Part shown: positions 7,551-61,398 of the stretch, one piece after another | Layout: every line of letters begins with the position of its first letter | Position numbering within the stretch: the first letter of the stretch is position 1 | Virus record (IMG/VR): IMGVR_UViG_3300046787_000200 | Span: 213,090 to 277,089 of that record | Length of the DNA: 64,000 nucleotides | DNA from: a virus | Strand: one strand, 5' to 3' | Notes under the pieces: model-generated | Seen by the model: the letters and a program-made list of their open reading frames with translations, nothing else | Database searches by the model: none | Told to the model about the DNA's origin: nothing | Position numbers and translations under genes: made by a program

Positions 7551-8377
7551 AAAAAGTTTTAATTACAGGTAACAGTGGTTACATAGGTTCACATCTTACT
7601 AAGATGTTAAAGAATGATTATGAAGTTTATGGATTAGATAAAGTAGAGCCACAAGAGTCACCTCATACATTCTATCATTGTGATATCAATCGTCAGTTTA
7701 GTTTAGAAGATGAGTTTGATTGTGTGATTCATTTAGCCGCATTGGTTAATGTAGGTGAAAGCGAAATCAAACCTATTCCATATTACATTACTAATTTGAA
7801 TGGCACAATGAATGTGTTGAATAAAATTAAAACAAAGAACTTTATCTTTGCAAGCACAGGAGCCGCACAAGATTGTTGTAGTGCATACGGAATTAGTAAA
7901 CGTGCGGCAGAAGATGTAGTTAGAGAATATTGTATCACCCATCGTCCAACACCATATACAATCTTTAGATTTTATAATGTTATTGGAAGCGAAGGCTTTG
8001 CTCCCACTAACCCCGATGGATTGATGTATAATCTAATTATGGCTATGCAATCAAAACAGTTTACTATATTCGGTAATGATTATGATGTATCACCTGATGG
8101 CACTTGTATTAGAGATTATGTTCATGTAAATGAAATATGTGATGCATTAAAACAAGCTATTGAGAAACCTAGTAATAGTGTAGAATGTTTGGGTCACGGA
8201 GTAGGATATACTGTAAAAGAGATTGTTGATGAGTTTCAAAAAGTCAATAATATCAACTTCAACGTGAAATACGGTTCAAGAAGAAAGGGTGATGTGGCCA
8301 GTAGTGTATTAGAAGATGTATCTCCTTATATGCGTAATTTGTATACAATAGACGAGTTGCTAAAGGTTGACAAATAA
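7544..8377 (+). CDS. NAD-dependent epimerase/dehydratase (SDR family)
   Basis: VLITGNSGYIGSHL Rossmann motif and a YGISK (YxxxK) catalytic motif. Confidence 0.7.
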   Translation: MVKKVLITGNSGYIGSHLTKMLKNDYEVYGLDKVEPQESPHTFYHCDINRQFSLEDEFDCVIHLAALVNVGESEIKPIPYYITNLNGTMNVLNKIKTKNFIFASTGAAQDCCSAYGISKRAAEDVVREYCITHRPTPYTIFRFYNVIGSEGFAPTNPDGLMYNLIMAMQSKQFTIFGNDYDVSPDGTCIRDYVHVNEICDALKQAIEKPSNSVECLGHGVGYTVKEIVDEFQKVNNINFNVKYGSRRKGDVASSVLEDVSPYMRNLYTIDELLKVDK

Positions 8378-8591
8378 TACATTTGGGTATATAATAGAGT
8401 CTTATTCAGTTGATTTACAGGGTAACAAAATGTCAGAAAAAGTAGAGCTTTATTGCACCCAAAATGACGAAGGTCAATGGCTTGTTTGGTTCCCTCATCC
8501 CTTAGGCGGTATGAATGTCTTGGAAACATTCGACAATGAAACCGACGCTAGGGCTTTTCACCAAGATCAAATTGATAGTGCTGAAATTTGA
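8367..8591 (+). CDS. hypothetical protein
   Basis: 74 aa. Its stop codon TGA lies inside the -35 of the downstream promoter. Confidence 0.4.
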   Translation: MTNNTFGYIIESYSVDLQGNKMSEKVELYCTQNDEGQWLVWFPHPLGGMNVLETFDNETDARAFHQDQIDSAEI

Positions 8592-8616
8592 CAATAAATG
8601 GCAATTGTGCTATAAT
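8588..8616 (+). promoter_or_regulatory. consensus sigma70-type phage early promoter TTGACAATAAAT-N-TATAAT
   Basis: TTGACA at 8588-8593, TATAAT at 8611-8616, 17-nt spacer. Confidence 0.55.
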
Positions 8617-8650
8617 ACTTGTATTGAGTTAATTAAAGGAATATAGATAT

Positions 8651-9322
8651 ATGGTTACGCAAACTAAATCGTTCAAATTGCCTAAAAATTTTCCACCAGT
8701 GGACAATGGTAGTGTATACAAAGAAATTACAAAAGTCATTAAAAACAATGAATTTGTATTTGATTTGGATAACCAAATATCAATGTTGGCATTACAAAAA
8801 ATGTTACCAGAGTATCCTTTTACTAAGGTTGCTGATTGTGTTTTGAATGTAGCTGAAAACTTTTTAGGTAAAAGTCTCTCTAGAAGAAAATATATTGATA
8901 GTATGTCATTTCAAGGTAATCTAGTTGATTATATTCCGGTAGCTGATATCAAAGCTTTGTGGGACGCTAGTCCTAAAGAATGGGTATACACTATTGTATA
9001 CAATGGTAAAATTGTTAAAATTGGCATGACTAGTTCGGGATTATCATCTAGGTATACTTCATATAAATCCGGAACTACCTTAGCAATGATTAAGGGTAGT
9101 TGTGCTACAACTAATTTTGTAGTTACACAATGCAATTATCTCGCATTATTGAAGAATATTAAGGTTGAAATTTTTGCATATGAAATTCCTCAGTTGATTA
9201 CTGAGCAGATTATTTTTGGCAAAAAAGAAAAAGTGCTAAATAAAGTAGCACATCAATTTGAATCTACCTTAATCAATATATACAAAGATTCAAAAGGATA
9301 TATTCCACCTTTGTGCGGATAA
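8651..9322 (+). CDS. hypothetical protein with a possible degenerate GIY-YIG nuclease motif
   Basis: VYTIVYNGKIVKIGMTSSGLSSRYTSY resembles GIY..YIG..R. Weak call. Confidence 0.3.
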   Translation: MVTQTKSFKLPKNFPPVDNGSVYKEITKVIKNNEFVFDLDNQISMLALQKMLPEYPFTKVADCVLNVAENFLGKSLSRRKYIDSMSFQGNLVDYIPVADIKALWDASPKEWVYTIVYNGKIVKIGMTSSGLSSRYTSYKSGTTLAMIKGSCATTNFVVTQCNYLALLKNIKVEIFAYEIPQLITEQIIFGKKEKVLNKVAHQFESTLINIYKDSKGYIPPLCG

Positions 9323-12186: not shown

Positions 12187-12608
12187 TGAATAAAGTAGAA
12201 ATTAATGTACATAATGCCTTAGTACGCAATAAACAGCATGTAAATTGTTCATTGATTTTAAAAACGTCATACAAAGATGCATATAATTATGCGTTGTATT
12301 GTAGTGACCATGATCACTTTTTATGTTGGGCTAGTTATGATGATTTTGATAACTATGCAAAACTAGGTATTAACAAAGTAGAATATACAGATAATGATAA
12401 TTATTTAGGTGCATGTATCATACCTAGTAATAATTGGGCATTCGAAGACCATACTCCTAGTGGATTAGTCAAAACAAAAACAACTAAAGTTACTAATTAT
12501 AAGACAGGCAAGAAAACTGAAATTTGGGTAGCTTTTAAGGGAAACAAACTCCGAGACCCGTCAATGCCCGAATATTGGGAATTTATTGAAAAAGCACAAA
12601 AAGGTTGA
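12183..12608 (+). CDS. hypothetical protein
   Basis: 141 aa, ATGA overlap. Confidence 0.4.
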   Translation: MMNKVEINVHNALVRNKQHVNCSLILKTSYKDAYNYALYCSDHDHFLCWASYDDFDNYAKLGINKVEYTDNDNYLGACIIPSNNWAFEDHTPSGLVKTKTTKVTNYKTGKKTEIWVAFKGNKLRDPSMPEYWEFIEKAQKG

Positions 12609-12632
12609 CAACTAATGGTATTTCTGCTATAA
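12604..12632 (+). promoter_or_regulatory. sigma70-type early promoter TTGACA-N17-TATAAT
   Basis: TTGACA at 12604-12609 (overlapping the previous stop), TATAAT at 12627-12632. Confidence 0.5.
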
Positions 12633-12663
12633 TTAATCTATTAAATCATATAACGGATTACAA

Positions 12664-13455
12664 ATGGCAGCTATATCGTTCAATCTCTTTAAAAACTCAT
12701 GTGAAGAACGTGGGTATACCGAACGGGTATATGAAGAACAAAACAACTGTGTGTTGTATACAAACAACGGTGTAAAGTGTGAGATTAAAAAGAACCACTA
12801 TACCGTAGGTTGGTTGGCCCGTCCAGAAGACGTAGCCGAAATGCGTAGCCGCATTTTATCCCAAGGCTTTACTGAAAAAATTGGTAAACGTTCTCCGACC
12901 AGAAAAGATGCTAAAGATTTTATTAACATTAACTTTGACGGTGATGTACTAGAAAACTTTTGGATCATTGTTGGTACCATTGAAGCTATTGAAACCATTG
13001 TACGCAAGGTACGTGGTCAAGCTATCAAGCCTATTCCACGTGAAGTATCCGAACGTAACATCTTTGAGAAAATCGCAAAACGTTTCAAATACTTTATCGA
13101 TAATGAAGATGGGTTTGGTCTAGAAAATACTCGTGCCTTACTTGAAGGGGATAGCATCGACCATTTGATTACTATCGGCGAATCAGTTAAGCGCACCAAA
13201 GAAAATACATACCGTGAACATATTGTTCCTTGTATTATGATTTACAATCAAGCGGTTACTATGACTATGGAAAAGCGTAGTGTAACTGAAGTAGCACAAA
13301 TGATTAAAAACAATTTGGCTATTGTGTTGATTACTAATGAAGAAGCTACATTGCTTGACAATGAATTAGATATGCAGACTAGTATGCCCGAAGGTTGGGT
13401 GTTCGGTGACGATGTGTTTGCACGATTGTCAACTGCCCAAATACAATTGAAATAA
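12664..13455 (+). CDS. hypothetical protein
   Basis: 263 aa ORF downstream of the promoter. Confidence 0.45.
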   Translation: MAAISFNLFKNSCEERGYTERVYEEQNNCVLYTNNGVKCEIKKNHYTVGWLARPEDVAEMRSRILSQGFTEKIGKRSPTRKDAKDFININFDGDVLENFWIIVGTIEAIETIVRKVRGQAIKPIPREVSERNIFEKIAKRFKYFIDNEDGFGLENTRALLEGDSIDHLITIGESVKRTKENTYREHIVPCIMIYNQAVTMTMEKRSVTEVAQMIKNNLAIVLITNEEATLLDNELDMQTSMPEGWVFGDDVFARLSTAQIQLK

Positions 13456-13481
13456 TCTAAATAGTAGTATATAATAAACAT

Positions 13482-14495
13482 ATGAAATACGCACTAATAG
13501 ACACAGCTAACACATTCTTTCGTGCCCGTCACGTTGCCTCACGTAACAGTGATCCTTGGGAAAAGGTGGGCATGGCACTACATCTTACACTTGCATCAGT
13601 CAATCAAATGGTGCGTAAGTTTGGAATTGATCACGTAGTATTCTGCTTAGAGGGCCGTAGCTGGCGCAAAGATCATTACGAGCCCTACAAGAAAAATCGT
13701 GTAGTTGATGCACTATCACAAACTGAAGCAGAACGTGAAGAAAATGAAATGTTTTGGGATACATATGAAAAGTTTACTACGTATCTTAAAGAGAAAACTA
13801 ATGTTTCAGTATTGAGACACGAACGTGCCGAGGCAGATGACTTGATTGCTCGCTTCATTCACTTGCATCCTAATGATGAACATTTTATCATCAGTAGCGA
13901 TACCGACTATGTTCAACTTATCAATGAAAATGTTAAACAATATAATGGTGTAGCTGGTCAACTAATTACGCTTGAAGGTTACTTTGATGATAAGGGTAAA
14001 GTAGTTAAAGACAAGAAAACTAAAGAACCCAAGCTACTCGGTGACCCTCAATGGCATCTATTTATGAAATGTATGCGTGGTGATAGTAGTGACAATGTAT
14101 TCAGTGCTTATCCCGGTGTGCGTGAAAAAGGTACTAAGAATAAAGTTGGCTTGACTGAAGCGTATGCTGATAGACATAAGCAAGGCTTCAATTGGAACAA
14201 CATGATGTTGCAACGTTGGGTTGACCACAATGAGGTTGAACACCGTGTTAAAGATGATTACGAGCGCAACCGTGTACTGATTGACTTGACTGCACAACCA
14301 CAAGAAATCAAAGATGCAGTTGATGCACGTATTAAGGAGAGTGTTCGTGTAACTACTATACCTCAAGTTGGTATTCACTTTATGAAATTCTGCGGAAAAT
14401 ATGAACTTACTAAAATTTCTGAACAAGCCGAAACGTATGCTAAATGGCTTAATTCGCCCTATAACGGAGCCCTTCATGTTACCGAACGTACTTAA
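13482..14495 (+). CDS. 5'-3' exonuclease / flap endonuclease (T4 RNase H / T5 FEN family)
   Basis: ALIDTANTFFRA N-terminus and IISSDTDYVQLI (the -DKD-xQL- FEN block). Confidence 0.75.
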   Translation: MKYALIDTANTFFRARHVASRNSDPWEKVGMALHLTLASVNQMVRKFGIDHVVFCLEGRSWRKDHYEPYKKNRVVDALSQTEAEREENEMFWDTYEKFTTYLKEKTNVSVLRHERAEADDLIARFIHLHPNDEHFIISSDTDYVQLINENVKQYNGVAGQLITLEGYFDDKGKVVKDKKTKEPKLLGDPQWHLFMKCMRGDSSDNVFSAYPGVREKGTKNKVGLTEAYADRHKQGFNWNNMMLQRWVDHNEVEHRVKDDYERNRVLIDLTAQPQEIKDAVDARIKESVRVTTIPQVGIHFMKFCGKYELTKISEQAETYAKWLNSPYNGALHVTERT

Positions 14496-18907: not shown

Positions 18908-18998
18908 AATATGTATTTATGTCAACGTATATAATAGCTGCCGCGTTATATATATGTAGACAATAAATTCTACTTCATTAACATAAAGGAAACTTAAA

Positions 18999-23036: not shown

Positions 23037-23061
23037 GCCCCGTATCTTATGGGGCTTTTTT
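23037..23061 (+). terminator. rho-independent terminator
   Basis: GCCCC-gtatcttat-GGGGC stem-loop followed by a T6 run. Confidence 0.6.
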
Positions 23062-23072
23062 GTAGCCAAAAT

Positions 23073-23101
23073 TTGACAATAAATCATTTTGGGTCTATAA
23101 T
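23073..23101 (+). promoter_or_regulatory. consensus early promoter TTGACAATAAAT-N-TATAAT
   Basis: TTGACA at 23073-23078, TATAAT at 23096-23101. Confidence 0.55.
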
Positions 23102-23130
23102 ACATGTATAGATTGATTAAAGGAACTGAT

Positions 23131-23346
23131 ATGAACTTCACACAATACATGCTTGATTTTTATGGTCCAAATGGTATCTATCCACTGGGTTTCAATGCAA
23201 CACAAATTAGTTTAGCTACCCAACTTTACAAAACCCGTCTACCCGAGGGTGAAGAATTCTACGGAGATACAGTAGACCGTGAACGTGTCCGTGATATCAT
23301 CTTGGCCGCACGTGAATCAGTGGTTCCCGAATACGCCAAAATTTGA
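23131..23346 (+). CDS. hypothetical protein
   Basis: Start set at the ATG after AAAGGAACTGAT. Stop TGA lies inside the next promoter's -35. Confidence 0.4.
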   Translation: MNFTQYMLDFYGPNGIYPLGFNATQISLATQLYKTRLPEGEEFYGDTVDRERVRDIILAARESVVPEYAKI

Positions 23347-23371
23347 CAATAAATCAGTTTGGGTATATAAT
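23343..23371 (+). promoter_or_regulatory. consensus early promoter with conserved leader
   Basis: TTGACA at 23343, TATAAT at 23366. Leader AGAATCTTAGACAGTCAACTAAAGGAC. Confidence 0.55.
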
Positions 23372-23403
23372 AGAATCTTAGACAGTCAACTAAAGGACAC
23401 AAA

Positions 23404-23664
23404 ATGAAAGTAGAAACAGCATTGAAACAGATCCAAAAAGAAGCACAATTCTTGGGTCTGGGTGTTATGGAAACATTGCAGTTTATTGCACAAAATCCCT
23501 TAGCACAACCCGCTAAGACTTTGGAAGCTTTCAAGGTTCTCAACCCCAACTTTCAGTTCCCAAAGAAAAAGGTCAAGAATTTGATGACCGGCAAGGAAAT
23601 TGAAATTGATGCAGATACCCCTAACTGTTGCAACCCTGCATCGGAAACTTATTGGTCAATGTAA
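23404..23664 (+). CDS. hypothetical protein
   Basis: 86 aa ORF. Confidence 0.4.
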   Translation: MKVETALKQIQKEAQFLGLGVMETLQFIAQNPLAQPAKTLEAFKVLNPNFQFPKKKVKNLMTGKEIEIDADTPNCCNPASETYWSM

Positions 23665-23665
23665 T

Positions 23666-23694
23666 TTGACATTAAATGGGCATTGTGCTATAAT
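23666..23694 (+). promoter_or_regulatory. consensus early promoter with conserved leader
   Basis: TTGACA at 23666, TATAAT at 23689. Same leader as above. Confidence 0.55.
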
Positions 23695-23726
23695 AGAATC
23701 TTAAACAGTCAACTAAAGGAAATAAA

Positions 23727-23993
23727 ATGTCAGCATTAACAAAGTATTTGGATCGTAAGAATTCTTTTGCTACACTCTTTGGTAGCAAGGTACTTAGCCT
23801 GCAAAATGCTAAGGATCGTCAAAGTATTGCCGATTCAATTGATTGTGACTTGAGTCCAGAGAATTTGACTTGTGACGGTGAGTTGCCCCGTAGCTTAGTT
23901 CAATCACGTTATAAGGAATTGACTAAGGCGGCTTTTGAGTTGAAGAAATTGGATCCTTCAGTTAAGTTTTACGAATACGGTACAGAAGTTTAA
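23727..23993 (+). CDS. hypothetical protein
   Basis: 88 aa ORF. Confidence 0.4.
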   Translation: MSALTKYLDRKNSFATLFGSKVLSLQNAKDRQSIADSIDCDLSPENLTCDGELPRSLVQSRYKELTKAAFELKKLDPSVKFYEYGTEV

Positions 23994-29125: not shown

Positions 29126-29433
29126 TACACATTACTGAAGAAGGCGGAGTGATTCGCAATGGTTTGAATTTTTACCCGCTAACGGATAAAAGCAGTTTTG
29201 GGTTTAGGTTTCGTTATGGATCAAAAATCTTTTGGTTTCGGTATAGCCGAATCACTCAACGCTGGACCATTAAAAACAGCACCAATCTGGTTGATAGTTA
29301 AAAATTTACTTTGGTATTGCCCTAAAATTTACTTTGGTATTGCTCCGGTATAAGAGTAATACTTTTTGCTGACTTGACACAAAATCCATTTGGTTGTATA
29401 ATATACACATAGACAGACAAAAAGGAGAGAAAA

Positions 29434-29637
29434 ATGCGTAGTATCAAAGAAGTCAAAACAGAACTTGAAAAACTCCGTGAAGAATACGAAAGTAAAGTTT
29501 CCTTGCTCAAAACTGAAATAGTAAGTATCCGTGAAAGTCGTGGATATAAACTCAAAGTACCCAAGTATGAAACTTATTACGAACCAGGACGCTCAACAAT
29601 GCCCACACCCTCAGGTGGTATGGGTGCAGGATATTAA
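29434..29637 (+). CDS. hypothetical protein
   Basis: 67 aa. AAAGGAGAGAAAAATG ribosome-binding site. Confidence 0.4.
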   Translation: MRSIKEVKTELEKLREEYESKVSLLKTEIVSIRESRGYKLKVPKYETYYEPGRSTMPTPSGGMGAGY

Positions 29638-29639
29638 GG

Positions 29640-29669
29640 TTGACAATAAATGAGTATTATGTTATAATA
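29640..29669 (+). promoter_or_regulatory. consensus early promoter with conserved leader
   Basis: TTGACA at 29640, TATAAT at 29664 (18-nt spacer). Leader AGAATCTTAGACAGTAAAG. Confidence 0.5.
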
Positions 29670-29701
29670 GAATCTTAGACAGTAAAGAAAAGGACTAACA
29701 A

Positions 29702-29941
29702 ATGAACAAACGAATTAAAGAACTTGCTGAACAATGTACTACAATCAATGATTCTACAACTATTCCAGTTGATAAGGATTTTGACTATGAAAAGTTCGCC
29801 GAGTTGATTATTGCTGAATGTATTGATGTATTCAGTAAAGATTTACCGGATACTACAAGCCCGGATTATCAACTAGGTAGCCTTCCAGAAGTCGTCAATC
29901 GTATCGCTAATGTAGCAGAACATTTCGGAGTTGAACTATGA
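29702..29941 (+). CDS. KFAELIVREC/HFGVEE paralog family member
   Basis: KFAELIIAECIDVF and a C-terminal EHFGVEL with the overlapping next ATG. Confidence 0.45.
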   Translation: MNKRIKELAEQCTTINDSTTIPVDKDFDYEKFAELIIAECIDVFSKDLPDTTSPDYQLGSLPEVVNRIANVAEHFGVEL

Positions 29942-33460: not shown

Positions 33461-35029
33461 ATGCGCTTAAAATTCCTATCTTTTTCAAATCTTACATTAT
33501 TGGTTGCACTATCATTAAGTTCAGTAGCAGCCTGGTATAGTATCATTGGCTTAACCGCTATCTTTGCAGGTGCGGTTATTCCTGTTATCATTATGGGTTC
33601 TATACTCGAAGTAGGTAAGATTACTACTACAGTATGGTTACGTAAATACTGGCATCGTGCTAGTTGGGTACTCAAACTATATCTTGTTCCTGCTGTTGTA
33701 GCATTAGCATTACTCACAAGCATGGGTATCTTTGGCTTCTTAAGTAAAGCGCACATGGACCAAGGTATCACATCAGGTGATGTGCAGGCTAAGTTAGCAC
33801 TTTATGATGAGAAGATAAAGACACAAAGAGATAATATTGAGTTAGCACGTAAAGCATTAACTCAAATGGATAACCAAGTTGACCAACGATTAAGTAGAGG
33901 TGATAGTGAAACTAGTGCTGAACGTGCAGTTGCTATTCGTAGACAACAAGCAGGTGAACGTAGTAAACTACAAAAAGATATTGGTGATGCACAAACACAA
34001 ATTGCTAAACTAAACGAAGAACGTGCGCCTATTGCGGCAGAGAATCGTAAAGTAGAAGCAGAAGTAGGTCCTATCAAATATATTGCCGCATTAATTTATG
34101 GTGATACTGCTGATAATAATATGTTAGAAAGTGCGGTAAGATGGGTTATTATATTATTGGTTGTTGTATTTGATCCATTGGCAATTGCACTTGTTCTTGC
34201 CGCTAATGCAAGTAAAGAATGGGATCTTGAAGAACCCGCAGAATATGATAAACCAGATGCATGGGTTGCTGATGTAGGTGAAAAACCTACTGTAGAAGAA
34301 ATTGAACCAGCATACGAGCCAGATGACGGTCCATTAACTGAAGAACAGATTGAACAAATCAAAGAAAGTGTCGATCCTGCTCCACCTGGATGGATGTTTG
34401 AGAAAAGTTCTATTATAAAAGATGAACCAGAAAAGTCAGTTGCAGAGTTGCATCCATACTTGAATCAGCCGTTCACACACTTTACTGATACTAAGCCAAT
34501 GGTTGCGCCCAAAGAAGAAGTAAAAGAAGAACCTATCGTTGAGAAAAAGCTAAAGAAGAAACGTGCTAAGAAAAAGGTTGAGCCAACTATTGAAACAGTA
34601 GACGTAACTACTGAAGAAGTTGTATTGCCTCCGGTAACAAAGTATAAAGAAATGCCTGGTGGTTATGTTGACTTTGAAGGTAAGCAGATTCAAAAAGATG
34701 CATTAAAGAGTTTGCGTCCGGATTTGTTTATGGTTAAACCAGACAGAACAAATGGGCAAGTTGAAACAGATTTTGGAACAAAGTTCCCCGAAACAGCAAA
34801 ACGTGGTAATATCTTTGTTCGTGTAGATGTTTCTCCCAATCGTGTCTATAAGTTTGATGGCCGTCAATGGATTGAAATGCAAAAGGAACAAACCGATACA
34901 TACCTTCACAACCAAAAGTATATTGAATTCCTAGTAGGAAAAATAGAAAAAGGTGAGTATGATATCGAGTTATTGTCCGATACCGAACGTGAAGAAATTG
35001 CCCAATATTTAGGTAACCAAAAGAGTTGA
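33461..35029 (+). CDS. large membrane protein with an N-terminal multi-TM region and extended coiled-coil/charged domains
   Basis: 522 aa. Three or four hydrophobic helices in the first 100 aa, a heptad-like charged middle section, and another TM around residue 225. Confidence 0.5.
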   Translation: MRLKFLSFSNLTLLVALSLSSVAAWYSIIGLTAIFAGAVIPVIIMGSILEVGKITTTVWLRKYWHRASWVLKLYLVPAVVALALLTSMGIFGFLSKAHMDQGITSGDVQAKLALYDEKIKTQRDNIELARKALTQMDNQVDQRLSRGDSETSAERAVAIRRQQAGERSKLQKDIGDAQTQIAKLNEERAPIAAENRKVEAEVGPIKYIAALIYGDTADNNMLESAVRWVIILLVVVFDPLAIALVLAANASKEWDLEEPAEYDKPDAWVADVGEKPTVEEIEPAYEPDDGPLTEEQIEQIKESVDPAPPGWMFEKSSIIKDEPEKSVAELHPYLNQPFTHFTDTKPMVAPKEEVKEEPIVEKKLKKKRAKKKVEPTIETVDVTTEEVVLPPVTKYKEMPGGYVDFEGKQIQKDALKSLRPDLFMVKPDRTNGQVETDFGTKFPETAKRGNIFVRVDVSPNRVYKFDGRQWIEMQKEQTDTYLHNQKYIEFLVGKIEKGEYDIELLSDTEREEIAQYLGNQKS

Positions 35030-35035
35030 AAACAA

Positions 35036-35064
35036 TTAAGTATTAGTATATAATATACATATTG
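35036..35064 (+). promoter_or_regulatory. sigma70-like promoter TTGAAA-N17-TATAAT
   Basis: Upstream of the lipoprotein gene at 35085. Confidence 0.4.
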
Positions 35065-35084
35065 TAACAACTATCGGAGTAATT

Positions 35085-35705
35085 ATGAAGCTCACGCTTA
35101 TCGCATTGTCTTGTGTAATCTTTGCAGGATGTGCTAGTAATAAAGGTGAAATTCCTACTATTGAATCACAATCATTCAAAATCAGTAAAAATGAATCAAT
35201 CAAAATTGATAAAGCATGTGGTTGGATTCAACGAGATAAATGTACTATTGAAAGAATCGAAGCTGTTGGTGTTCAACCATCAGTAGGTGCAACACGTTCA
35301 TTGCAAAAATCAACTACACTTATGGCTTGTGATAACGCTAGAGCCAACGTAGTTAGTTATGTGTTCGGCACTAATGTTAGTGAGAATAGAGTTGCACGAA
35401 CAAAGAACAAGCAGAATGAAAATCAAAAAGACCGTGTAAAGTCTAAGACTGAGATTGGTCAAGATGTTGATATGGCAAGTGATGACAATGAGAAAGATAC
35501 TAATTACAGTATCCGAGAAGCATTGATTAACTCTGACATTGATATGGTTCGAACAATCACTACATCTAGTCAAGGTAAATTAGTTGGATTTAGGATTGAA
35601 GATGCTAGACCAATTGATGCTAAAACAATTGCTTGTACTATCACTTGGAGCAAGAATGATAGCCAAGATTTGAAGAAAGTCCGTAGTTTAATTTCAGGAC
35701 AATAA
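35085..35705 (+). CDS. lipoprotein (LPP20-like)
   Basis: Lipobox IFAGC and an LPP20-like VGVQPSVGATRS ... A..A..V block. Confidence 0.45.
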   Translation: MKLTLIALSCVIFAGCASNKGEIPTIESQSFKISKNESIKIDKACGWIQRDKCTIERIEAVGVQPSVGATRSLQKSTTLMACDNARANVVSYVFGTNVSENRVARTKNKQNENQKDRVKSKTEIGQDVDMASDDNEKDTNYSIREALINSDIDMVRTITTSSQGKLVGFRIEDARPIDAKTIACTITWSKNDSQDLKKVRSLISGQ

Positions 35706-36711: not shown

Positions 36712-37914
36712 ATGTCAACAGAAAACAAACTCAATCATTGCTCATTTTGTGATAAACACAAAGATGATGTTAAGAAACTAATTGTTAGCGAAGAAGTGGC
36801 AATTTGTAGTGATTGCGTAGAACTATGCAATTCACTTATGTTAGATGATGATGGTAAAAGTGAATTTGTATCGGAAGATACTGTATCATATGATCCAGAA
36901 TCAATTAAAGATTATCTTGACCAACATGTTATCGGACAAGATAATGCTAAAAAAGTGTTAAGTGTTGCTATTGCTAATCACTATAAACGTATCAACCGGC
37001 CACCAAAAGACTTAGAAATCTCTAAGGGTAATGTGTTGCTTGTTGGTCCTACTGGCTCAGGTAAAACATTGCTTGCTAAGACAGTTGCCAAATATCTCAA
37101 AGTGCCCTTTGTTGTAGCAGATGCGACAAGTATCACTGAAGCTGGTTATGTAGGTGATGACGTTGAATCCATGATTAGTATGTTACTCAATGCCGCTGGC
37201 GGTGATGTTAAACTGGCCGAGCGTGGTATTGTGTTCATTGATGAGATTGACAAGATTGCACGTAAAGGCGAATCTGCAAGTATCACCCGTGATGTGTCAG
37301 GTGAGGGTGTTCAGCAAGCTTTACTGAAAATGGTTGAAGGCACTGTATGTCGTATTCCAGCAGGTGGTGGACGTAAACATCCCGGTGGTGATATGATTGA
37401 GATTAACACTAAGAATATCTTATTCATTGCCGGTGGTGCATTTGTTGGGTTGAAAGATATTATTAAAAGTAGAGAAACTGGATCTAGTATCGGGTTCGGG
37501 GCTAAAATCAAAGATAAGAGCATAGAGGGCAATCTAAGCAACGTTAGCCCAGACGATTTAGTTAAATTCGGTATGATTCCTGAATTCATCGGACGTTTCA
37601 CTACTACTGTAAACGTAGAGGATTTGAGCAAAGAAGATTTGGTAAAGGTATTGACTGGTATTAAGAATAACTATATCGACCAATACAAGTATTTGCTGAG
37701 TTTAGACAACATTGAGTTAAACTTCACAGAAGATGCATTGGATCAGTTAGCAGAGAATACACTAGCATTGAAAACAGGTGCTCGTGGATTGCATACTGAG
37801 ATTGAGCGTGTATTGATGACACATATGTTTAATACTAAGAAATACCGTGAAAATAAAATTCTAAACATAAATATAGATAGAAAACAAATTTTGGAGCCAA
37901 AAGTATTAGTATGA
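36712..37914 (+). CDS. clpX: ATP-dependent Clp protease ATP-binding subunit ClpX
   Basis: N-terminal C4 zinc domain (CSFC ... CSDC), Walker A LLVGPTGSGKTLLAKT, and ClpX-wide similarity over 400 aa. Confidence 0.9.
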   Translation: MSTENKLNHCSFCDKHKDDVKKLIVSEEVAICSDCVELCNSLMLDDDGKSEFVSEDTVSYDPESIKDYLDQHVIGQDNAKKVLSVAIANHYKRINRPPKDLEISKGNVLLVGPTGSGKTLLAKTVAKYLKVPFVVADATSITEAGYVGDDVESMISMLLNAAGGDVKLAERGIVFIDEIDKIARKGESASITRDVSGEGVQQALLKMVEGTVCRIPAGGGRKHPGGDMIEINTKNILFIAGGAFVGLKDIIKSRETGSSIGFGAKIKDKSIEGNLSNVSPDDLVKFGMIPEFIGRFTTTVNVEDLSKEDLVKVLTGIKNNYIDQYKYLLSLDNIELNFTEDALDQLAENTLALKTGARGLHTEIERVLMTHMFNTKKYRENKILNINIDRKQILEPKVLV

Positions 37915-38126
37915 GAGGTAGAAAGGTTTTAGTTCAGGACGGAAACGTAGACAAAGCATTGCGAAAATTTAAAAAAATTATCGCAGACTATGGTACCTTG
38001 CAAGAGGTTCGTGACCGTCAAGAATTTGTAAAGCCTACTATCAAACGCAAATTAGCAAGAAGCCAGGCGAAAAGACGCTGGAACAAGTATTTGCGTGACC
38101 AAAGTCTTCCTAAGAAAAACTTTTAA
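37911..38126 (+). CDS. rpsU: ribosomal protein bS21
   Basis: 71 aa. KVLVQDGNVDKALRKFKK ... EVRDRQEFVKPTIKRK aligns with bacterial S21. ATGA overlap with clpX. Confidence 0.8.
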   Translation: MRGRKVLVQDGNVDKALRKFKKIIADYGTLQEVRDRQEFVKPTIKRKLARSQAKRRWNKYLRDQSLPKKNF

Positions 38127-38232
38127 GTTCCAAAATAGTAGATTTTTTTGCATATTTTTATTATAATAAATATGTATTCAGATGCCGATGGTCGGGTCTG
38201 AAATATGTCATCTTGCTTAAAAGGAGAAAAAA

Positions 38233-38685
38233 ATGACAAATCAATTAACCCTTCGTTCCTTAGACATTCCGTCTATTCATAAGTTCTCAGTCGGTTTCGA
38301 CCGTATGTTTGACGAACTAACTCGTAATCAAGCGCAACAATCAAACTACCCCCCATATAACATTGTACAAATCAATGAAGATGAATATATGATTAGTGTT
38401 GCTGTTGCAGGTTTCGGGCCTGATAATCTATCAGTTACAAAAGATAAAAACTTCCTAGTAATTGAAGGTAATCATGCATTGAATAGTATTAAAACTAACG
38501 ATGCAGATCCTGTATATCTACATAAGGGTATCAGTGAGCGTAACTTCCGACGTGAGTTCCGTTTAGCGGACCATGTAGAGATTGAGAACGCACATTTAGA
38601 ATTGGGTATCTTAAGTATTCACTTGAAACGTGAAGTTCCTGAAGAACAAAAGCCCAAGTCTATTGCAATTACCTACACTAAATAA
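38233..38685 (+). CDS. ibpA: small heat-shock protein (IbpA/IbpB, Hsp20 family)
   Basis: SVGFDRMFDEL ... YPPYNIVQINEDEYMISVAVAGF, i.e. the alpha-crystallin domain. Confidence 0.85.
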   Translation: MTNQLTLRSLDIPSIHKFSVGFDRMFDELTRNQAQQSNYPPYNIVQINEDEYMISVAVAGFGPDNLSVTKDKNFLVIEGNHALNSIKTNDADPVYLHKGISERNFRREFRLADHVEIENAHLELGILSIHLKREVPEEQKPKSIAITYTK

Positions 38686-38748
38686 TATAATAGTGTTTCA
38701 TTAAAACAAGTGTGCGGGGCAACTCGCACACATAACTAAAAGAAAATT

Positions 38749-39054
38749 ATGTCTAAAACTGATACTAAAATTAAAATCAAACCTAATCTTGCACTAGCAG
38801 AACCCCCATTGTATAAAATCATTTATATCAATGATGAAGTAACCAGTATGCAATTTGTAGTAAACAGTTTGATTAGTTATTTTAATTATAATGAAGATAC
38901 TGCAACTTCATTGACAGAGAATATTCATCATCAAGGTAGTGCAGTTGTTGCAGTTTTACCGTACGAAATTGCAGAGCAAAAGGGAATTGAAGTAACACTT
39001 GATGCACGTAGCAAGGGTTTTCCACTACAAGTCAAAGTAGAAGCTGAGGCTTAA
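38749..39054 (+). CDS. clpS: Clp protease adaptor ClpS (N-degron recognin)
   Basis: PPLYKIIYINDEVTSMQFVV ... HHQGSAVVAVLPYEIAE matches the ClpS core. Confidence 0.8.
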   Translation: MSKTDTKIKIKPNLALAEPPLYKIIYINDEVTSMQFVVNSLISYFNYNEDTATSLTENIHHQGSAVVAVLPYEIAEQKGIEVTLDARSKGFPLQVKVEAEA

Positions 39055-42220: not shown

Positions 42221-42249
42221 TTGACTTTAACATAAACTTCTGTTATAAT
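42221..42249 (+). promoter_or_regulatory. sigma70-like promoter TTGACT-N17-TATAAT upstream of clpP
   Basis: TTGACT at 42221, TATAAT at 42244. Confidence 0.5.
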
Positions 42250-42278
42250 AGTGGAAACATTATTTTTAAAGGAAGTTT

Positions 42279-42866
42279 ATGTCTCTAGTACCAATCGTTA
42301 TTGAACAAACAAGCAAAGGTGAACGTAGCTATGATATCTATAGCCGTCTAATGCGTGACCGTGTTATTCTGCTTGAAGGTGAAGTTCACGACCAAATGGC
42401 AAATCTAATTGTTGCTCAACTACTATTCCTCGAAAGTGAAGGTGACAAAGATATCTCAATGTATATCAATAGCCCAGGTGGTAGTGTAACTGCTGGTATG
42501 GCAATCTATGATGCTATGCAATTCATTAAACCCGATGTACAAACAATCGTTATGGGTCAAGCTTGTTCAATGGGTTCACTACTCGCACAAGCAGGAGCTA
42601 AAGGTAAACGTATGATGTTGCCTAATGCACGACACATGATTCACCAACCCTCAGGTGGCGCACGTGGTATGCAAAGTGATATCGAAATCAGCTATAAAGA
42701 AATTACTTACTTGAAGAAACGCCTAACCGATATCTATGTCAAGCATAACAGTGCAGGAAAGACTTATGAAGAATTTGAACGAGACATGGACCGTGATAAG
42801 TTCATGTCGGCTGAAGAAGCATTAGCTTACGGCTTGATTGATAAAATTATTGAAAAGAGAGAATAA
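42279..42866 (+). CDS. clpP: ATP-dependent Clp protease proteolytic subunit ClpP
   Basis: [19 protein letters not shown]-type N-terminus. Catalytic-region blocks [23 protein letters not shown] and HQPSGG. Confidence 0.9.
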
Positions 42867-42867
42867 A

Positions 42868-43359
42868 ATGCCTTGGATCGAGAATATTGCATTAGTAGAT
42901 GTAGCGAAGGCTCGTCATCATAATGCTGGCGAAAACAGTATGCTAATACAAATTGTCGATCCGGCTATGGAGTTCCCTGCTCCGTTGCATAAGTTCAAAG
43001 AGATTCATCAGTTTGAGTTTTTGGACCTTGAAAGCAATGATCCATGGGGAGAAGAATTTAAAGTAACTGATTCACAAGCTGAAAGCCTTGTTAAGTTACT
43101 ACAACATGCATTGGAGAAAAGAATGAATGTAGTAGTTCATTGTGTCGCCGGTGTATGTCGCAGTGGTGCAGTTTGTGAAGTTGGTGTTATGATGGGCTTC
43201 AATGATACTGAAGCTTTTCGTAGTCCTAACTTAATGGTTAAGCATAAGATGATGAAGGTTCTAGGATGGACCTACGATGAAAACGAGCCCCATACAATCA
43301 ATGGTGTAACTACTGATTGGGGCTTCGTCCTACCAAAAGAGCGTGAGGGCGATATCTAG
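42868..43359 (+). CDS. protein-tyrosine / dual-specificity phosphatase (CX5R)
   Basis: VVVHCVAGVCRSGAV. Start trimmed to the ATG just after the clpP stop. Confidence 0.6.
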   Translation: MPWIENIALVDVAKARHHNAGENSMLIQIVDPAMEFPAPLHKFKEIHQFEFLDLESNDPWGEEFKVTDSQAESLVKLLQHALEKRMNVVVHCVAGVCRSGAVCEVGVMMGFNDTEAFRSPNLMVKHKMMKVLGWTYDENEPHTINGVTTDWGFVLPKEREGDI

Positions 43360-43366
43360 CCAAAAT

Positions 43367-43395
43367 TTGACAATAAATCATTTTGGGTCTATAAT
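43367..43395 (+). promoter_or_regulatory. consensus early promoter
   Basis: TTGACA at 43367 (contains the PTP-gene stop TAG/TGA region), TATAAT at 43390. Confidence 0.55.
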
Positions 43396-43424
43396 ACATG
43401 TATTGATTGATTAAAGGAGCTGAA

Positions 43425-43679
43425 ATGACTGATTTTGAAACTAAGTGCTACGGAATGTCTGAACAAAATATCCGTGAACAGTACATGGAAAGTACTACTG
43501 CTAAGTTCGCAGGTCTAGAAATGGTTGTAATGGGTATTCTTTCTGACTGCCAAGAAATGCAAGCCATGAATAACCCTATGATTGCTTCTATGCGTTCAAA
43601 TGAATACGTTCGTAAACAATTGAATATTGCCAAATTTATCCTGTCTGAAATGATGGATGCAAAAGTAGCCAAAATTTGA
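43425..43679 (+). CDS. hypothetical protein
   Basis: Start at the ATG after AAAGGAGCTGAA. Stop TGA lies inside the next -35. Confidence 0.4.
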   Translation: MTDFETKCYGMSEQNIREQYMESTTAKFAGLEMVVMGILSDCQEMQAMNNPMIASMRSNEYVRKQLNIAKFILSEMMDAKVAKI

Positions 43680-43704
43680 CAATAAATGGGTAATCTGTTA
43701 CAAT
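43676..43704 (+). promoter_or_regulatory. consensus early promoter (TTGACA-N17-TACAAT) with conserved leader
   Basis: Leader GATACTTAGACAGTTAGATAAAGGAC. Confidence 0.5.
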
Positions 43705-43737
43705 AGATACTTAGACAGTTAGATAAAGGACTAGGAA

Positions 43738-44004
43738 ATGCGTAGACAACAAATTGTAAGTGGTATGAATAACAGTCAAAAAATCCGTTTTATGATTGAC
43801 GGATTTGGTATGTATTGCAAAGTTTCTGATATTGAGAACTTTGCTACTAGCTCACACCGTGTTGCAGTTATTTCGGCATTGCAACATTTACAATGCACCC
43901 GTGATTTAGCCAAAAGTTGCGGCAAAAAAGATATCCCATCTGGTTTCGGCACTCGCAGAACGTTTCAAGGTGTTGACCATGATGTTCAAGTTAACCTCAT
44001 CTAA
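43738..44004 (+). CDS. hypothetical protein
   Basis: 88 aa ORF. Confidence 0.4.
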   Translation: MRRQQIVSGMNNSQKIRFMIDGFGMYCKVSDIENFATSSHRVAVISALQHLQCTRDLAKSCGKKDIPSGFGTRRTFQGVDHDVQVNLI

Positions 44005-44014
44005 GGAGTAAACA

Positions 44015-44284
44015 ATGACTAAGAAAATTTCTATCAAAGTTTTCGGTGATCCAGGACACGCTTGGGCACGTTTCCCCAAAGCAAGATTGGTCAAGCTTGG
44101 TATCGCTGATAAGATTTCTTGCTATAGTTACCAAAACGGCACTAATGCTTTCCTCGAGGAAGATTGTGACCTCTCAACACTAATGACGGCTCTCCGTGAA
44201 CATGGCTACACGGATATCAAATTCAACGAAAGCCACACTAATAAACAGAGCAAAATCCGTAGTTACAATACCTACAGAATTTGA
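44015..44284 (+). CDS. hypothetical protein
   Basis: 89 aa. AAGGAG ribosome-binding site. Stop lies inside the next -35. Confidence 0.4.
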   Translation: MTKKISIKVFGDPGHAWARFPKARLVKLGIADKISCYSYQNGTNAFLEEDCDLSTLMTALREHGYTDIKFNESHTNKQSKIRSYNTYRI

Positions 44285-44309
44285 CAATAAATGGTGTTTG
44301 TGCTATAAT
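44281..44309 (+). promoter_or_regulatory. consensus early promoter with conserved leader
   Basis: TTGACA at 44281, TATAAT at 44304. Confidence 0.55.
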
Positions 44310-44343
44310 ATATTCTTAGACAGTTAAATAAAGGACTTACAAA

Positions 44344-44568
44344 ATGCGTAGTTTTACTTTTGATGTAGTGGACATTATGGATGCTAATGGGCATTGCCGC
44401 ACAATTGAAGGTGCTGAGTGGATTAAACTAGCAACCAAGATGGTTAGTGAAGGTCGTGCTACTCTTGTAGAAAACAACCGATCAATGTCTGGATCCGGGA
44501 CCGCATTTAGTAATTCGGCTGATGTATGTTATTTGCGTTCTAACATGACCGTGACTGAAGTTGTATAA
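44344..44568 (+). CDS. hypothetical protein
   Basis: 74 aa ORF. Confidence 0.4.
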   Translation: MRSFTFDVVDIMDANGHCRTIEGAEWIKLATKMVSEGRATLVENNRSMSGSGTAFSNSADVCYLRSNMTVTEVV

Positions 44569-44586
44569 AAACAACATATCCAAAAC

Positions 44587-44615
44587 TTGACAATAATTGG
44601 ATTTGGGACTATAAT
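44587..44615 (+). promoter_or_regulatory. consensus early promoter with conserved leader
   Basis: TTGACA at 44587, TATAAT at 44610. Confidence 0.55.
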
Positions 44616-44649
44616 AGAATCTTAGACAGTTAAATAAAGGACTTACAAA

Positions 44650-45144
44650 ATGGCTACTCGTTCTACAATCGCTTTAGAATTCGCTGATGGTACTATTGGT
44701 CAAGTGTACGCACACTGGGATGGTTACTTGTCAGGTAATGGCAAGACTCTGTTTGAATACTATTCTAATCCCTTCATCTTGCGTGACTTGATCGACCTCG
44801 GTAGTATCTCTAGCCTGGGTAACACAATAGGTACAAAACATCCCTTCAGTCACTATGACACCGAGTTGTCATTGGTTCAGTTCAATAACCTCTACGACAA
44901 TATGACTACATTCTATGGTCGTGACCGCGGCGAGACTGATGTAGAGGCAAAGTATTTCAAAGATTTTGCAGATTACAAAGCTAACTGCCAACAAGAAGAA
45001 TACGATTACATCCTGCGTAACGTGAATGGTGTTGCTACTTGGTTTGTATCAGATCATGGTAGCGAATTCATTTTGCTGACTGAGGCTTTTGCTGAGGAAG
45101 CACGTGTAATCGCTGAAGAATCAAAAGAAGCATTGCCCCTCTAA
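44650..45144 (+). CDS. hypothetical protein
   Basis: 164 aa ORF. Confidence 0.45.
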   Translation: MATRSTIALEFADGTIGQVYAHWDGYLSGNGKTLFEYYSNPFILRDLIDLGSISSLGNTIGTKHPFSHYDTELSLVQFNNLYDNMTTFYGRDRGETDVEAKYFKDFADYKANCQQEEYDYILRNVNGVATWFVSDHGSEFILLTEAFAEEARVIAEESKEALPL

Positions 45145-47774: not shown

Positions 47775-48032
47775 ATGACAGAAACTAAACAAGCCCGTGT
47801 CTTAGAGGCACTTCAGTCTGGTGAGCAACTCACAGCAAAACAAATCTCCGCACGTTTCGGAGTAGCAAACCCAACAGCTACTATCAGTAGCTTGCGTTTC
47901 GCAGGTTATGCAGTTTATGCTAATGAGCGTACCGATACTAAGGGCCGTGTTACTACCAAGTACCGTCTAGGTAAGCCTTCCCGTGCTCTAGTAGCCGCAG
48001 GTTACCGTGCAATGGCACTAGGTATCGTTTAA
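47775..48032 (+). CDS. small helix-turn-helix-like protein
   Basis: Start at the ATG after AAGGAAAA. LTAKQISARFGVANPTATISSLR is HTH-like. Confidence 0.4.
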   Translation: MTETKQARVLEALQSGEQLTAKQISARFGVANPTATISSLRFAGYAVYANERTDTKGRVTTKYRLGKPSRALVAAGYRAMALGIV

Positions 48033-59765: not shown

Positions 59766-59772
59766 TGTATCA

Positions 59773-60514: not shown

Positions 60515-60948
60515 GTTATTCAATATACGACAATACAATGAATACTGTTAACACAGTATCAGTTACCGGCCCTACTCCATCCCCGGTATATACTACTACC
60601 GGAACAGGAAGTTCAGGACTATATTGGGGTATGAATGGGACGAGCGGTGGTTCTGGTCAAGTACTGACTACAAACGGCACTAATCCTAGTTGGATTACTG
60701 CAGATCCAAATCTAAAAGGTGCATCAATTCAAGTTAAAGGTGATGCTGAGTTTGACGGTGAAGTCACTATTAAAGGCAAGAAGCTAACAGAAATGTTTGA
60801 AAAGATAGAAGAACGATTAGCTATCCTTCACCCAAACCCAGAGTTAGAAGATAAATGGGAAAATCTTCGTGGCTTACGCAAAGCTTACATGGAATTAGAG
60901 CAGGAAATCATAGAAAAAGAGCGTGTTTGGAAGATTCTAAAAGATTGA
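60511..60948 (+). CDS. hypothetical protein
   Basis: 145 aa. Stop TGA lies inside the next -35. Confidence 0.4.
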   Translation: MSYSIYDNTMNTVNTVSVTGPTPSPVYTTTGTGSSGLYWGMNGTSGGSGQVLTTNGTNPSWITADPNLKGASIQVKGDAEFDGEVTIKGKKLTEMFEKIEERLAILHPNPELEDKWENLRGLRKAYMELEQEIIEKERVWKILKD

Positions 60949-60973
60949 CAAATATTCCATATTTTGCTATAAT
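60945..60973 (+). promoter_or_regulatory. consensus early promoter TTGACA-N17-TATAAT
   Basis: TTGACA at 60945, TATAAT at 60968. Confidence 0.5.
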
Positions 60974-61005
60974 AGAGACTGTTTAATAACTATGACCTAC
61001 ACATC

Positions 61006-61398
61006 ATGACCATGCACTTAGCACATCCCGCACTATCCATGGGCGGCAAACGCAAAGGTAAAACAAAGTTTCGCAATAGCGCAGAAGCTCAGAAAGCCCG
61101 TCAGCTTGATGCTGATTGGAAAGAATTACAGAAAAAATGGGAAGTCGATGCCGATGACAAAAAGCGCAAACGTGCATTGGCGGCTGAACCATTATCATAT
61201 AACTTATCAGCACCGGTAGGTCGTGCGACATCAAACAACATCCCAAGTCGTGTAACTGCAGGTGGTTCTACTGCACCTATTCATAAGGTCTATACTGGTA
61301 ATAAGATTCTTGGTATTGGTACTATGCACAAAAGTAATGCTGTGCCTATCTTTAGTGACGAGCAGGCTGTAGAAATTTCAAGGATGCGCCGTGGCTGA
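61006..61398 (+). CDS. hypothetical basic protein
   Basis: 130 aa ORF. Confidence 0.4.
   Translation: MTMHLAHPALSMGGKRKGKTKFRNSAEAQKARQLDADWKELQKKWEVDADDKKRKRALAAEPLSYNLSAPVGRATSNNIPSRVTAGGSTAPIHKVYTGNKILGIGTMHKSNAVPIFSDEQAVEISRMRRG

Follow-up and report, generated by a model that had tools for sequence, protein, structure and literature searches.

Why should one short sequence, conserved well beyond the two hexamers of a bacterial promoter, stand in front of so many genes of a phage? The question is raised by a 64,000-nt stretch of an uncultivated giant phage, the IMG/VR virus record IMGVR_UViG_3300046787_000200 (positions 213,090 to 277,089 of the record; hereafter, the window), in which a unit of about 75 bases, combining a consensus bacterial promoter with a short, fixed leader and a ribosome-binding site, precedes many small genes. 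Four such units, which we call cassettes, follow one another within 43200-44800 (-35 boxes at 43367, 43676, 44281 and 44587), all with the same layout: TTGACAATAA(A/T)T, 11 bases, TATAAT (TACAAT at 43676), a short leader, AAAGGA and ATG. The cassette family is most likely the standard switch of the phage for its earliest genes. On balance, we consider it probable that the cassettes serve the host RNA polymerase as strong promoters early in infection, that their initial transcribed region and 5' untranslated region (5'UTR) are under selection, and that they also act as joints for gene shuffling.

Promoter cassettes in the window and in related contigs

A search of the window for TTGACAATAAAT-N11-TATAAT with up to 3 mismatches returned 19 matches, all on the + strand; shuffled sequences gave 0.47 matches on average, and none of the 100 shuffles reached 19. 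A stricter scan for TTGACA-17-TATAAT, with at most one mismatch in total, detected 23 sites on the + strand and none on the - strand, all with 17-bp spacers. Perfect 12/12 hexamer matches account for 14 of these 23 sites, compared with about 0.02 expected per strand, as estimated from base composition. The sites thus combine the features of sigma70/sigmaA-type promoters, namely, consensus -35 and -10 boxes, 17-bp spacing, orientation along the genes and location upstream of a gene. An earlier note on the window had listed copies of a repeated promoter element, and all of these were found, at 8588, 12605 (given there as 12604), 23073, 23343, 23666, 29640, 43367, 43676 (with TACAAT as the -10 box), 44281, 44587 and 60945. 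The looser copies that it listed are present as well, at 42221 (TTGACT), 35026 (given as 35036; TTGAAA), 10701 (TTGACT/TACAAT), 47703 (TTGATT) and 48080 (TTGCAT with TGc), the last three being genuine yet weaker. The scans added a class C cassette (8367), a loose class A cassette (29374) and three leaderless promoters (13447, 25926 and 59738), the classes being those defined below. The description of these elements as sigma70-type cassettes immediately upstream of small genes without known function, in the style of the T4 early region, also agrees with our results: the cassettes lie on the coding strand, with a Shine-Dalgarno sequence (SD) and an ATG at a fixed distance.

The leaders recur no less clearly. 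Leader A, CTTAGACAGTnAAnTAAAGGAC, is present with up to 3 mismatches in six copies in the window (23377, 23700, 29674, 43710, 44315 and 44621), compared with 0.01 expected. The six near-identical leaders of the earlier note accordingly stand, with the correction that GGAC and ATG are 5-7 nt apart instead of 4-6. The second leader, which the note had assigned to two other copies, corresponds to leader B, ATTGATTAAAGGA, with exact matches at 23112 and 43406 and a loose copy at 8628. A repeat search of the window recovered the cassette unit as families of 52-82 nt, and an alignment of 16 window sequences yielded the common cassette layout.

Related loci were collected with an exact 22-base pattern that covers only the -10 box, the leader core and the SD. 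The matches listed include more than 117 IMG/VR contig stretches, some from contigs of 263, 349 and 525 kb. The coding DNA of these loci is merely 70-80% identical to that of the window, and the -35 box, ATAAAT just 3' of it and the spacer GGnTTTGGGTA are near invariant in these relatives, although they lie outside the search pattern. Around orthologous genes, pairwise column identity is 0.9-1.0 within the cassette and 0.2-0.4 directly upstream, and shows codon (3-base) periodicity downstream. The cassettes are 84-88% identical; for the proteins encoded downstream, the mean identity is 49-64% and the minimum is 30%. Because this first set of loci was chosen with leader A, 80 further loci were fetched solely by homology to the FEN/RNaseH-like exonuclease of the window (hereafter, RNaseH), a search in which at least 597 related stretches were found, with contigs of up to 367 kb among the matches listed. 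These 80 loci contain promoters on the gene strand and on the opposite strand in a ratio of 285:11, and class A is represented by 20 unique copies in 13 of them. The cassette pattern had no hits in 185,579 bacterial and archaeal species genomes, and a search with a 74-nt cassette found nothing significant among 50,697 deposited phage genomes.

Leader classes, proposed gene joints and rival explanations

A scan of all strong promoters in the fetched related loci resolved discrete leader classes, denoted A, B, A/B hybrid, C and D, along with a leaderless class. Downstream of the -10 box, class A reads AGAATCTTAGACAGTnAAnTAAAGGAC, class B ACwTGTATTGATTGATTAAAGGAGC, the A/B hybrid AGAGGCTTAGATTGATTAAAGGAGC, class C AGAGTCTTATTCAGTyrA...AGG and class D ACTTGTATTGAmACTGA..., whereas in the leaderless class six bases are followed by ATG (TATAAT-N6-ATG). 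The distance from the -10 box to the ATG is, accordingly, bimodal in these loci, either 6 nt (56 promoters) or 27-34 nt; spacings of 5, 7 and 8 bases in the leaderless class are represented by 3, 16 and 1 promoters, respectively. In the independently chosen loci, 25 of the 54 recognisable RNaseH starts retain the leaderless layout. Given that the ATG lies exactly six bases after the -10 box in the leaderless class, the transcription start can be set at the seventh base after this box. A class A transcript would then begin with UUAGACAGU, and AGAATC would be an untranscribed discriminator. A single phage lineage apparently employs leadered and leaderless early transcripts alike.

The leader motifs are almost confined to a fixed offset from the -10 box: this holds for 180 of 184 copies of TTAGACAGT, 53 of 57 copies of CTTATTCAGT, 17 of 19 copies of GTATTGATTGATT and 14 of 15 copies of TTAGATTGATT. 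Thus, the leader belongs to the promoter unit rather than being used on its own inside operons. The suggestion of the earlier note that the leader is a translational enhancer loses its ground, at least for a free-standing one, given that hardly any copies of the motifs lack a -10 box at the fixed offset and that the start regions are no less structured than others. An unusually open ribosome-binding region was also rejected: mean folding energy is -4.1 kcal/mol at cassette starts versus -4.4 at other SD-bearing starts (p=0.89). The initial transcribed region of class A is 69% purine and 71% A+T (background, 55% and 63%). Class C leaders, with a purine fraction of 0.54, are not purine-rich, so that composition alone does not account for the invariant leader bases. 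Two observations concern sequences inside the leaders that resemble a -35 box. Leader A at 44315-44330, TTAGACAGTTAAAT, is like the -35 block TTGACAATAAAT at 44281-44292 except for two single-base insertions, and in class D leaders of related loci a perfect TTGACA is found at about +2 to +7; these could be traces of slipped recombination or second binding sites.

The other roles proposed for the leader at the RNA level fared no better. For nine leaders with 30 nt of coding sequence, predicted folding energies range from -1.5 to -5.4 kcal/mol, and in eight of the nine the fold is weaker than the average for the shuffled leader (z up to +1.9). A scan of the window against Rfam at gathering thresholds gave no hits. 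The structured regulatory RNA envisaged in the earlier note was rejected on the basis of these single-sequence folds and the Rfam result, and the unit is most likely not a new kind of RNA element. A processing site for a RegB-like nuclease is also disfavoured: GGAG, the RegB site, occurs in just 39 of 198 class A leaders (20%), as a count of sites and without a search for RegB homologues, and in 18 of 22 class B and 14 of 17 A/B leaders (82% in both). In class A, which reads AAAGGAC, AGGA is followed by C in 113 of 170 cases. An IHF-site reading was considered and dropped as well, for the reasons given below for the boxA-like one.

We propose that the host RNA polymerase with its primary sigma factor would read each cassette right after infection, each promoter firing one small early gene or a short run of genes. 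Read in the direction of transcription, the cassette has a short A-tract (CCAAAAT or AAAAAGG) where the proximal UP subsite is expected, then the consensus -35 box with ATAAAT after it, 17 bp of spacer with either TTTGGGTA or an extended -10 (TGTGC) at the 3' end, the consensus -10 box, an A and a class-specific discriminator (AGAATC in class A). Transcription starting at about the seventh base after the -10 box would produce an unstructured, A/T-rich 5'UTR of about 27 nt (UUAGACAGUnAAnUAAAGGAC in class A), with a moderate SD (AAGGA) at its 3' end, 5-7 nt before the ATG. The segment from the discriminator to about +12 may be kept as a part of the promoter, that is, as the initial transcribed region that limits output at consensus promoters (compare T5 N25, below), and the remainder of the leader as a ribosome-loading site. 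Because the same 50-75 bp recur at many gene boundaries, the cassettes would also act as portable joints for the insertion, loss or exchange of genes that bring along their own expression signals.

The genomic setting of the cassettes bears on this last proposal. When relatives are compared, homology stops at the 5' edge of the cassette. Upstream neighbours vary among genomes, and one family of downstream genes is combined with many upstream families; the family of the gene at 44650, for instance, has at least nine upstream families in 18 occurrences. The leader class also differs between orthologous genes (in family 3, B in 7, C in 12, D in 6 and A in 1). The gene MTKKISIKVFGDPGHAW (44015-44284) is preceded by an SD alone in the window, and its orthologues in 17 related loci carry a class A cassette of their own, which makes the presence of the cassette polymorphic at this gene. 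Mean likeness is 0.711 between cassettes at orthologous genes across genomes, 0.634 between different cassettes within a locus and 0.626 in the background. With orthologous cassettes more alike and those of the same locus at background level, selection on each copy is favoured over ongoing homogenisation, which was not seen within genomes. This pattern fits purifying selection on each copy together with occasional exchange at the cassettes.

The cassettes are also tightly packed against coding sequence. In 211 of about 540 promoters of the relatives, the stop codon of the upstream open reading frame (ORF) is the TGA within TTGACA, and 139 more upstream ORFs end within 8 nt of this TGA, showing that the cassette abuts coding sequence. 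The share of ORFs that end in the -35 box is near the one in three expected if coding runs up to the cassette and, therefore, mainly reflects very tight packing. In the window, stops of this kind are found at 8589-8591, 12606-12608, 23344-23346, 43677-43679, 44282-44284 and 60946-60948. Of 545 cassettes, 32 (6%; controls, 1.8%) have a terminator-like hairpin in the 70 nt upstream, and consecutive cassettes are mostly not separated by a terminator. A 7-bp inverted repeat, CCAAAAT ... ATTTTGG, brackets the -35 box at 23065-23101 and 43359-43395, and an A/T-rich inverted repeat, TACCCAAA(n) ... TTTGGGTA, of up to 10 bp surrounds the -35 box in about 6% of the cassettes of the relatives. A stem-loop bracketing the -35 box, similar to the promoter-early stem-loops (PeSLs) discussed below, was considered and rejected as a general feature: it is limited to a small subset, and shuffling of the partners gave no sign of covariation (25 observed vs 18.4 +/- 3.4).

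The near invariance of AGAATCTTAGACAGT in hundreds of copies, upstream of proteins with identities down to 30-60%, has no explanation in composition and would be accounted for if a factor encoded by the phage recognised the leader and the classes were different labels. This factor might be a repressor binding the DNA from -6 to +15 to turn early promoters off; it might also work on the 5' ends of early mRNAs, as an RNA-binding translational repressor or as a nuclease, with a function like that of RegA or RegB. The discreteness of the classes, which form no continuum, the specificity of AGGAC for class A and the presence of GGAG in B and A/B, the tie between leader and promoter, as for an operator overlapping the start site, and a winged-helix protein encoded in the window (47775-48032) are all in line with this possibility. 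We nevertheless regard it as unlikely because the conserved block, as read from the sequence, has no operator-type dyad symmetry, no candidate regulator was identified, and most class A leaders do not contain GGAG and so do not fit a RegB-type specificity. Moreover, the class switching among orthologues indicates that the leader classes are largely interchangeable rather than gene-specific labels. Uniformity of the leaders could, alternatively, be mainly a by-product of recombinational spread of PeSL-like mobile cassettes, copied as whole units to new sites and among co-infecting phages, resulting from descent and gene conversion and not from selection on the leader. The break of homology at the 5' edge, the widely different upstream neighbours of one downstream gene, the presence or absence of a cassette at the same gene (44015) and the A/B hybrid leaders, which look like crossovers inside the cassette, all point in this direction; in the PeSLs of RB49, crossovers between the -10 box and the ATG have been shown experimentally (PMC2839356). 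This explanation is, however, quite improbable in view of the background-level likeness of cassettes in the same locus and the higher likeness at orthologous positions, of the sharp separation between variable and invariant positions, a signature of purifying selection, and of the conservation that holds where protein identity is 30-50%.

Another possibility is an RNA-level role of the leader, either as a structured element akin to a riboswitch or attenuator or as a site of factor loading, for instance in boxA-type antitermination. The usual lack of terminators between consecutive cassettes could be adduced for it, along with UCUUA-N-ACA in AGAATCTTAGACA, which resembles the boxA core. With no stable fold, mostly positive z-scores and no Rfam match, this is highly improbable, and the boxA-like reading in particular was dropped: if transcription starts at the seventh base after the -10 box, the 'AATC' part is not transcribed, so that the motif lies partly 5' of the start, and classes B, C and D contain no such motif. 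A more speculative idea, to which we give little credence, is that the position-locked leader classes, the leaderless one included, form a small code read by phage-encoded factors. Reading could be done by a repressor or nuclease, which would set the time at which subsets of early genes are shut off, or by ribosomes altered by the bS21 and IF-1 proteins of the phage. If this were true, the first 15-25 transcribed bases would give giant phages a further layer of early-expression programming, one that follows promoter recognition.

Several points weigh against the reading that we prefer, in which the host polymerase reads an early promoter whose initial transcribed region is under selection. The anatomy of the cassettes, the rules of strand and position, the conservation, the tie between leader and -10 box, the lack of RNA structure and the breaks of synteny are seen directly in the sequences; the early timing, the polymerase (host sigma70), the start site and the role of the leader in promoter escape are inferred from them. 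Most of the loci used for the statistics were gathered with a pattern containing leader A, which biases the class A frequencies; those of B, C, D and the leaderless class, and the loci fetched by RNaseH homology, are unaffected. The start regions of cassettes do not differ from other SD-bearing ones by weaker structure, which gives no support to an optimisation for translation. ClpX, about 50% identical to homologues from many phyla, is uninformative on the host, and ClpP is marginally closest to entries that we take to be Escherichia coli ClpP. Composition alone leaves the near invariance of CTTAGACAGT unexplained; the reason for the exact leader sequence is the main gap in the explanation, and the discrete leader classes could reflect recognition by specific factors.

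Whatever the role of the leader, the cassette would be a ready sequence marker for early genes and gene-shuffling joints in an abundant clade of giant phages without a cultured member. Its natural variants, which number in the hundreds, combine a consensus promoter with an initial transcribed region under constraint and could be used to study the effect of this region on output; the cassettes are also candidate compact, strong expression parts.

Feature coordinates and gene content of the window

The window has a G+C content of 36.6%, and most of its ORFs, including all long ones, are on the + strand. It encodes an ATP-dependent ligase, ClpX, MetK, a DAO oxidoreductase, ClpP, ClpS, Hsp20, bS21, IF-1, an IscA-like protein and the FEN/RNaseH-like exonuclease; a tRNA search of the window found none. 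Behind the cassettes lie small genes without known function. The coordinates of the cassettes and other promoters are listed in the table.

Table. Cassettes, other promoters and associated hairpins in the window
Feature	Coordinates	Strand	Details
Class C cassette	8359..8432	+	-35 TTGACA 8367-8372; -10 TATAAT 8390-8395; leader AGAGTCTTATTCAGTTGA...; ATG 8430; from scan, repeats and alignment; class defined from related loci
Loose class B cassette, extended -10 (TGc)	8580..8653	+	-35 8588; -10 8611-8616; ATG 8651; upstream ORF stop is TGA within -35
Promoter cassette	12597..12666	+	-35 12605; TGcTATAAT 12625-12633; ATG 12664; upstream ORF stop is TGA within -35
Leaderless promoter	13447..13484	+	TTGAAA 13447-13452; TATAAT 13470-13475; six bases; ATG 13482 of FEN/RNaseH-like exonuclease
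Intrinsic-terminator-like hairpin GCCCCGTATCTTATGGGGC and T run	23037..23055	+	immediately 5' of the 23073 cassette
Class B cassette	23065..23133	+	-35 23073; -10 23096-23101; leader ACATGTATAGATTGATTAAAGGAAC; ATG 23131; 96% identity to cassette at 43359
Class A cassette	23335..23406	+	-35 23343; -10 23366-23371; leader AGAATCTTAGACAGTCAACTAAAGGAC; ATG 23404; upstream ORF stop is TGA within -35
Class A cassette, leader with 2 mismatches, extended -10	23658..23729	+	-35 23666; -10 23689-23694; ATG 23727
Loose class A cassette, leader ATAGACAGACAAAAAGGAG	29366..29436	+	-35 29374; -10 29397-29402; ATG 29434; terminator-like hairpin 29336-29363 upstream
Class A cassette	29632..29704	+	-35 29640; -10 29663-29668; leader ...CTTAGACAGTAAAGAAAAGGAC; ATG 29702
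Looser promoter	35026..35087	+	TTGAAA-17-TATAAT; short leader with GGAG; ATG 35085
Looser promoter 5' of ClpP gene	42221..42281	+	TTGACT-17-(TGt)TATAAT; ATG 42279
Class B cassette	43359..43427	+	-35 43367; -10 43390-43395; leader ACATGTATTGATTGATTAAAGGAGC (GGAG inside); ATG 43425
Class A cassette	43668..43740	+	-35 43676; -10 TACAAT 43699-43704; ATG 43738; upstream ORF stop is TGA within -35
Class A cassette, extended -10 (TGc)	44273..44346	+	-35 44281; -10 44304-44309; ATG 44344; upstream ORF stop is TGA within -35
Class A cassette	44579..44652	+	-35 44587; -10 44610-44615; ATG 44650 (164-aa protein, phrog_1987); kept before orthologues in many contigs
Promoter cassette, extended -10, divergent leader	60937..61008	+	-35 60945; -10 60968-60973; ATG 61006; upstream ORF stop is TGA within -35
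Leaderless layout	25926-25962; 59738-59775	+	-10 box, 5-6 bases, then ATG

The phage encodes a full Clp set, with ClpX, ClpS and ClpP, along with the small heat-shock protein Hsp20 (36712-39054 and 42279-42866). Directly 3' of ClpX lies the gene for ribosomal protein bS21 (37911-38126; Pfam E=5.5e-16), and translation initiation factor IF-1 is encoded at 61687-61902 (E=3.2e-22). These two genes are of interest in view of the mixed start types, which include SD-led, SD-less (about 47% of the genes in the window) and leaderless ones. Segment 42000-46000 of the window had no near DNA match, and the 522-aa ORF at 40639 no protein match, among the deposited phages (50,697 genomes in the DNA search). 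Exact-protein look-ups aimed at the host returned just contigs of 651 and 1,755 bp.

A second promoter-like motif, ATAAATA, is located 2-6 nt 5' of the ATG of long ORFs, at 528, 16741, 21625, 40118, 40626, 51700 and 62641 on the + strand and at 18920 on the - strand. In related loci, 65 of 294 copies of the motif are positioned 4-6 nt 5' of the ATG of a long ORF, compared with 45 of 1,464 copies of composition-matched control 7-mers. The motif resembles the T4 late promoter, TATAAATA, and its position suggests that late transcripts may also be leaderless or nearly so. Six paralogous small genes (24852, 28534, 29792, 30352, 30704 and 31101) share the motif KFAELIVREC, and several have the same 3' end, HFGVE-stop; one of these paralogues sits behind the class A cassette at 29640. 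Within the ORF at 55082-56209, 36-nt (12-codon) tandem repeats, in about six or more copies with 61-75% identity, occupy 55331-55630.

Comparison with known systems

The closest cultured relative, judged by RNaseH, is the Pseudomonas jumbo phage PA5oct (287 kb, Arenbergviridae), with 50% identity. According to the main text of its description, PA5oct is dependent on the host polymerase, is sensitive to rifampicin and has 32 conserved TTGAC / TATAATA promoters, with an extra A after the -10 box as in the cassettes, and that text reports no conserved leader (PMC7318152). A further difference is that the RNaseH gene of PA5oct lies inside an operon, with no promoter directly upstream. Affiliation with T4-type phages was assessed from this RNaseH match and from the ligase, which is about 32% identical to those of Bacillus and Vibrio phages. 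A literature search on RaK2-type promoters yielded nothing useful.

The T4 early promoters are 'uber' UP/-35/TGn/-10 promoters, with excellent matches to every recognition element of the host polymerase and extra conserved positions (PMC2988021). The cassettes share with them these matches, the conserved positions outside the hexamers, the arrangement in which many promoters drive serial small early genes and, presumably, the competition for polymerase right after infection. The T4 early -35 box is GTTTAC-like, whereas that of the cassettes is an exact TTGACA, and conservation in the cassettes extends about 30 nt 3' of the -10 box. T4 early promoters are also stimulated by Alt ADP-ribosylation; our comparison addresses sequence only.

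T5 early promoters such as N25, which are very strong and limited at the step of escape, provide a parallel for a downstream region that forms part of the promoter. The native A/T-rich initial transcribed sequence of N25 allows fast promoter escape, and replacement of +3 to +20 lowers output about 10-fold (PMC12464699). Effects of the initial transcribed sequence are large in general (PMC5961368), with 10- to 25-fold shifts in output where escape is limiting (PMC12464699, PMC5961368). Leader A is similar to N25 in composition (the purine and A+T contents given above), and the cassettes, as the fixed-offset counts demonstrate, have a conserved +1 to +20 sequence tied to the promoter. The N25 discriminator is AGATTC, similar to AGAATC of leader A. 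There is no sequence homology beyond composition, however, and the function of the downstream region is putative in the cassettes.

The most extensive likeness is to the PeSLs, which are known from the T4-type phages RB49/phi1, PST/T4 and nt-1/KVP40 (PMC2839356, PMC4122927). Both are repeated composite cassettes with a strong sigma70-like promoter, which is a near-perfect TTGACA-N17-TATAAT in RB49, with an A/T-rich stretch upstream and an SD and start codon at the 3' end. Both are also found between small genes of unknown function, in plastic regions that are sites of insertion, deletion and replacement, with recombination in the present case suggested by the sequence comparisons; the 164-aa gene at 44650 has a homologue in a plastic region of nt-1. 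However, the terminator stem-loop just 5' of or around the -35 box that defines PeSLs, exemplified in nt-1 by AAAAAGGGTTGACAgaTGTCAGCCCTTTTT, is present in merely about 6% of the copies here, and the upstream gene often ends inside the -35 box. In addition, a fixed leader between the -10 box and the SD, divided into discrete classes, is the most conserved extra feature of the cassettes, and their closest cultured relative is PA5oct and not a T4-type phage. The lack of the stem-loop, the fixed, class-structured leader and the leaderless sub-class set the cassettes apart from PeSLs. By analogy, the cassettes would work like PeSLs or T4/T5 early promoters without being members of the PeSL group, in a phage that is not demonstrably T4-type. 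In large lytic phages, early promoters that are strong and conserved come as no surprise; what is distinctive here is the depth of leader conservation, the discrete leader classes and the existence of a leaderless class.

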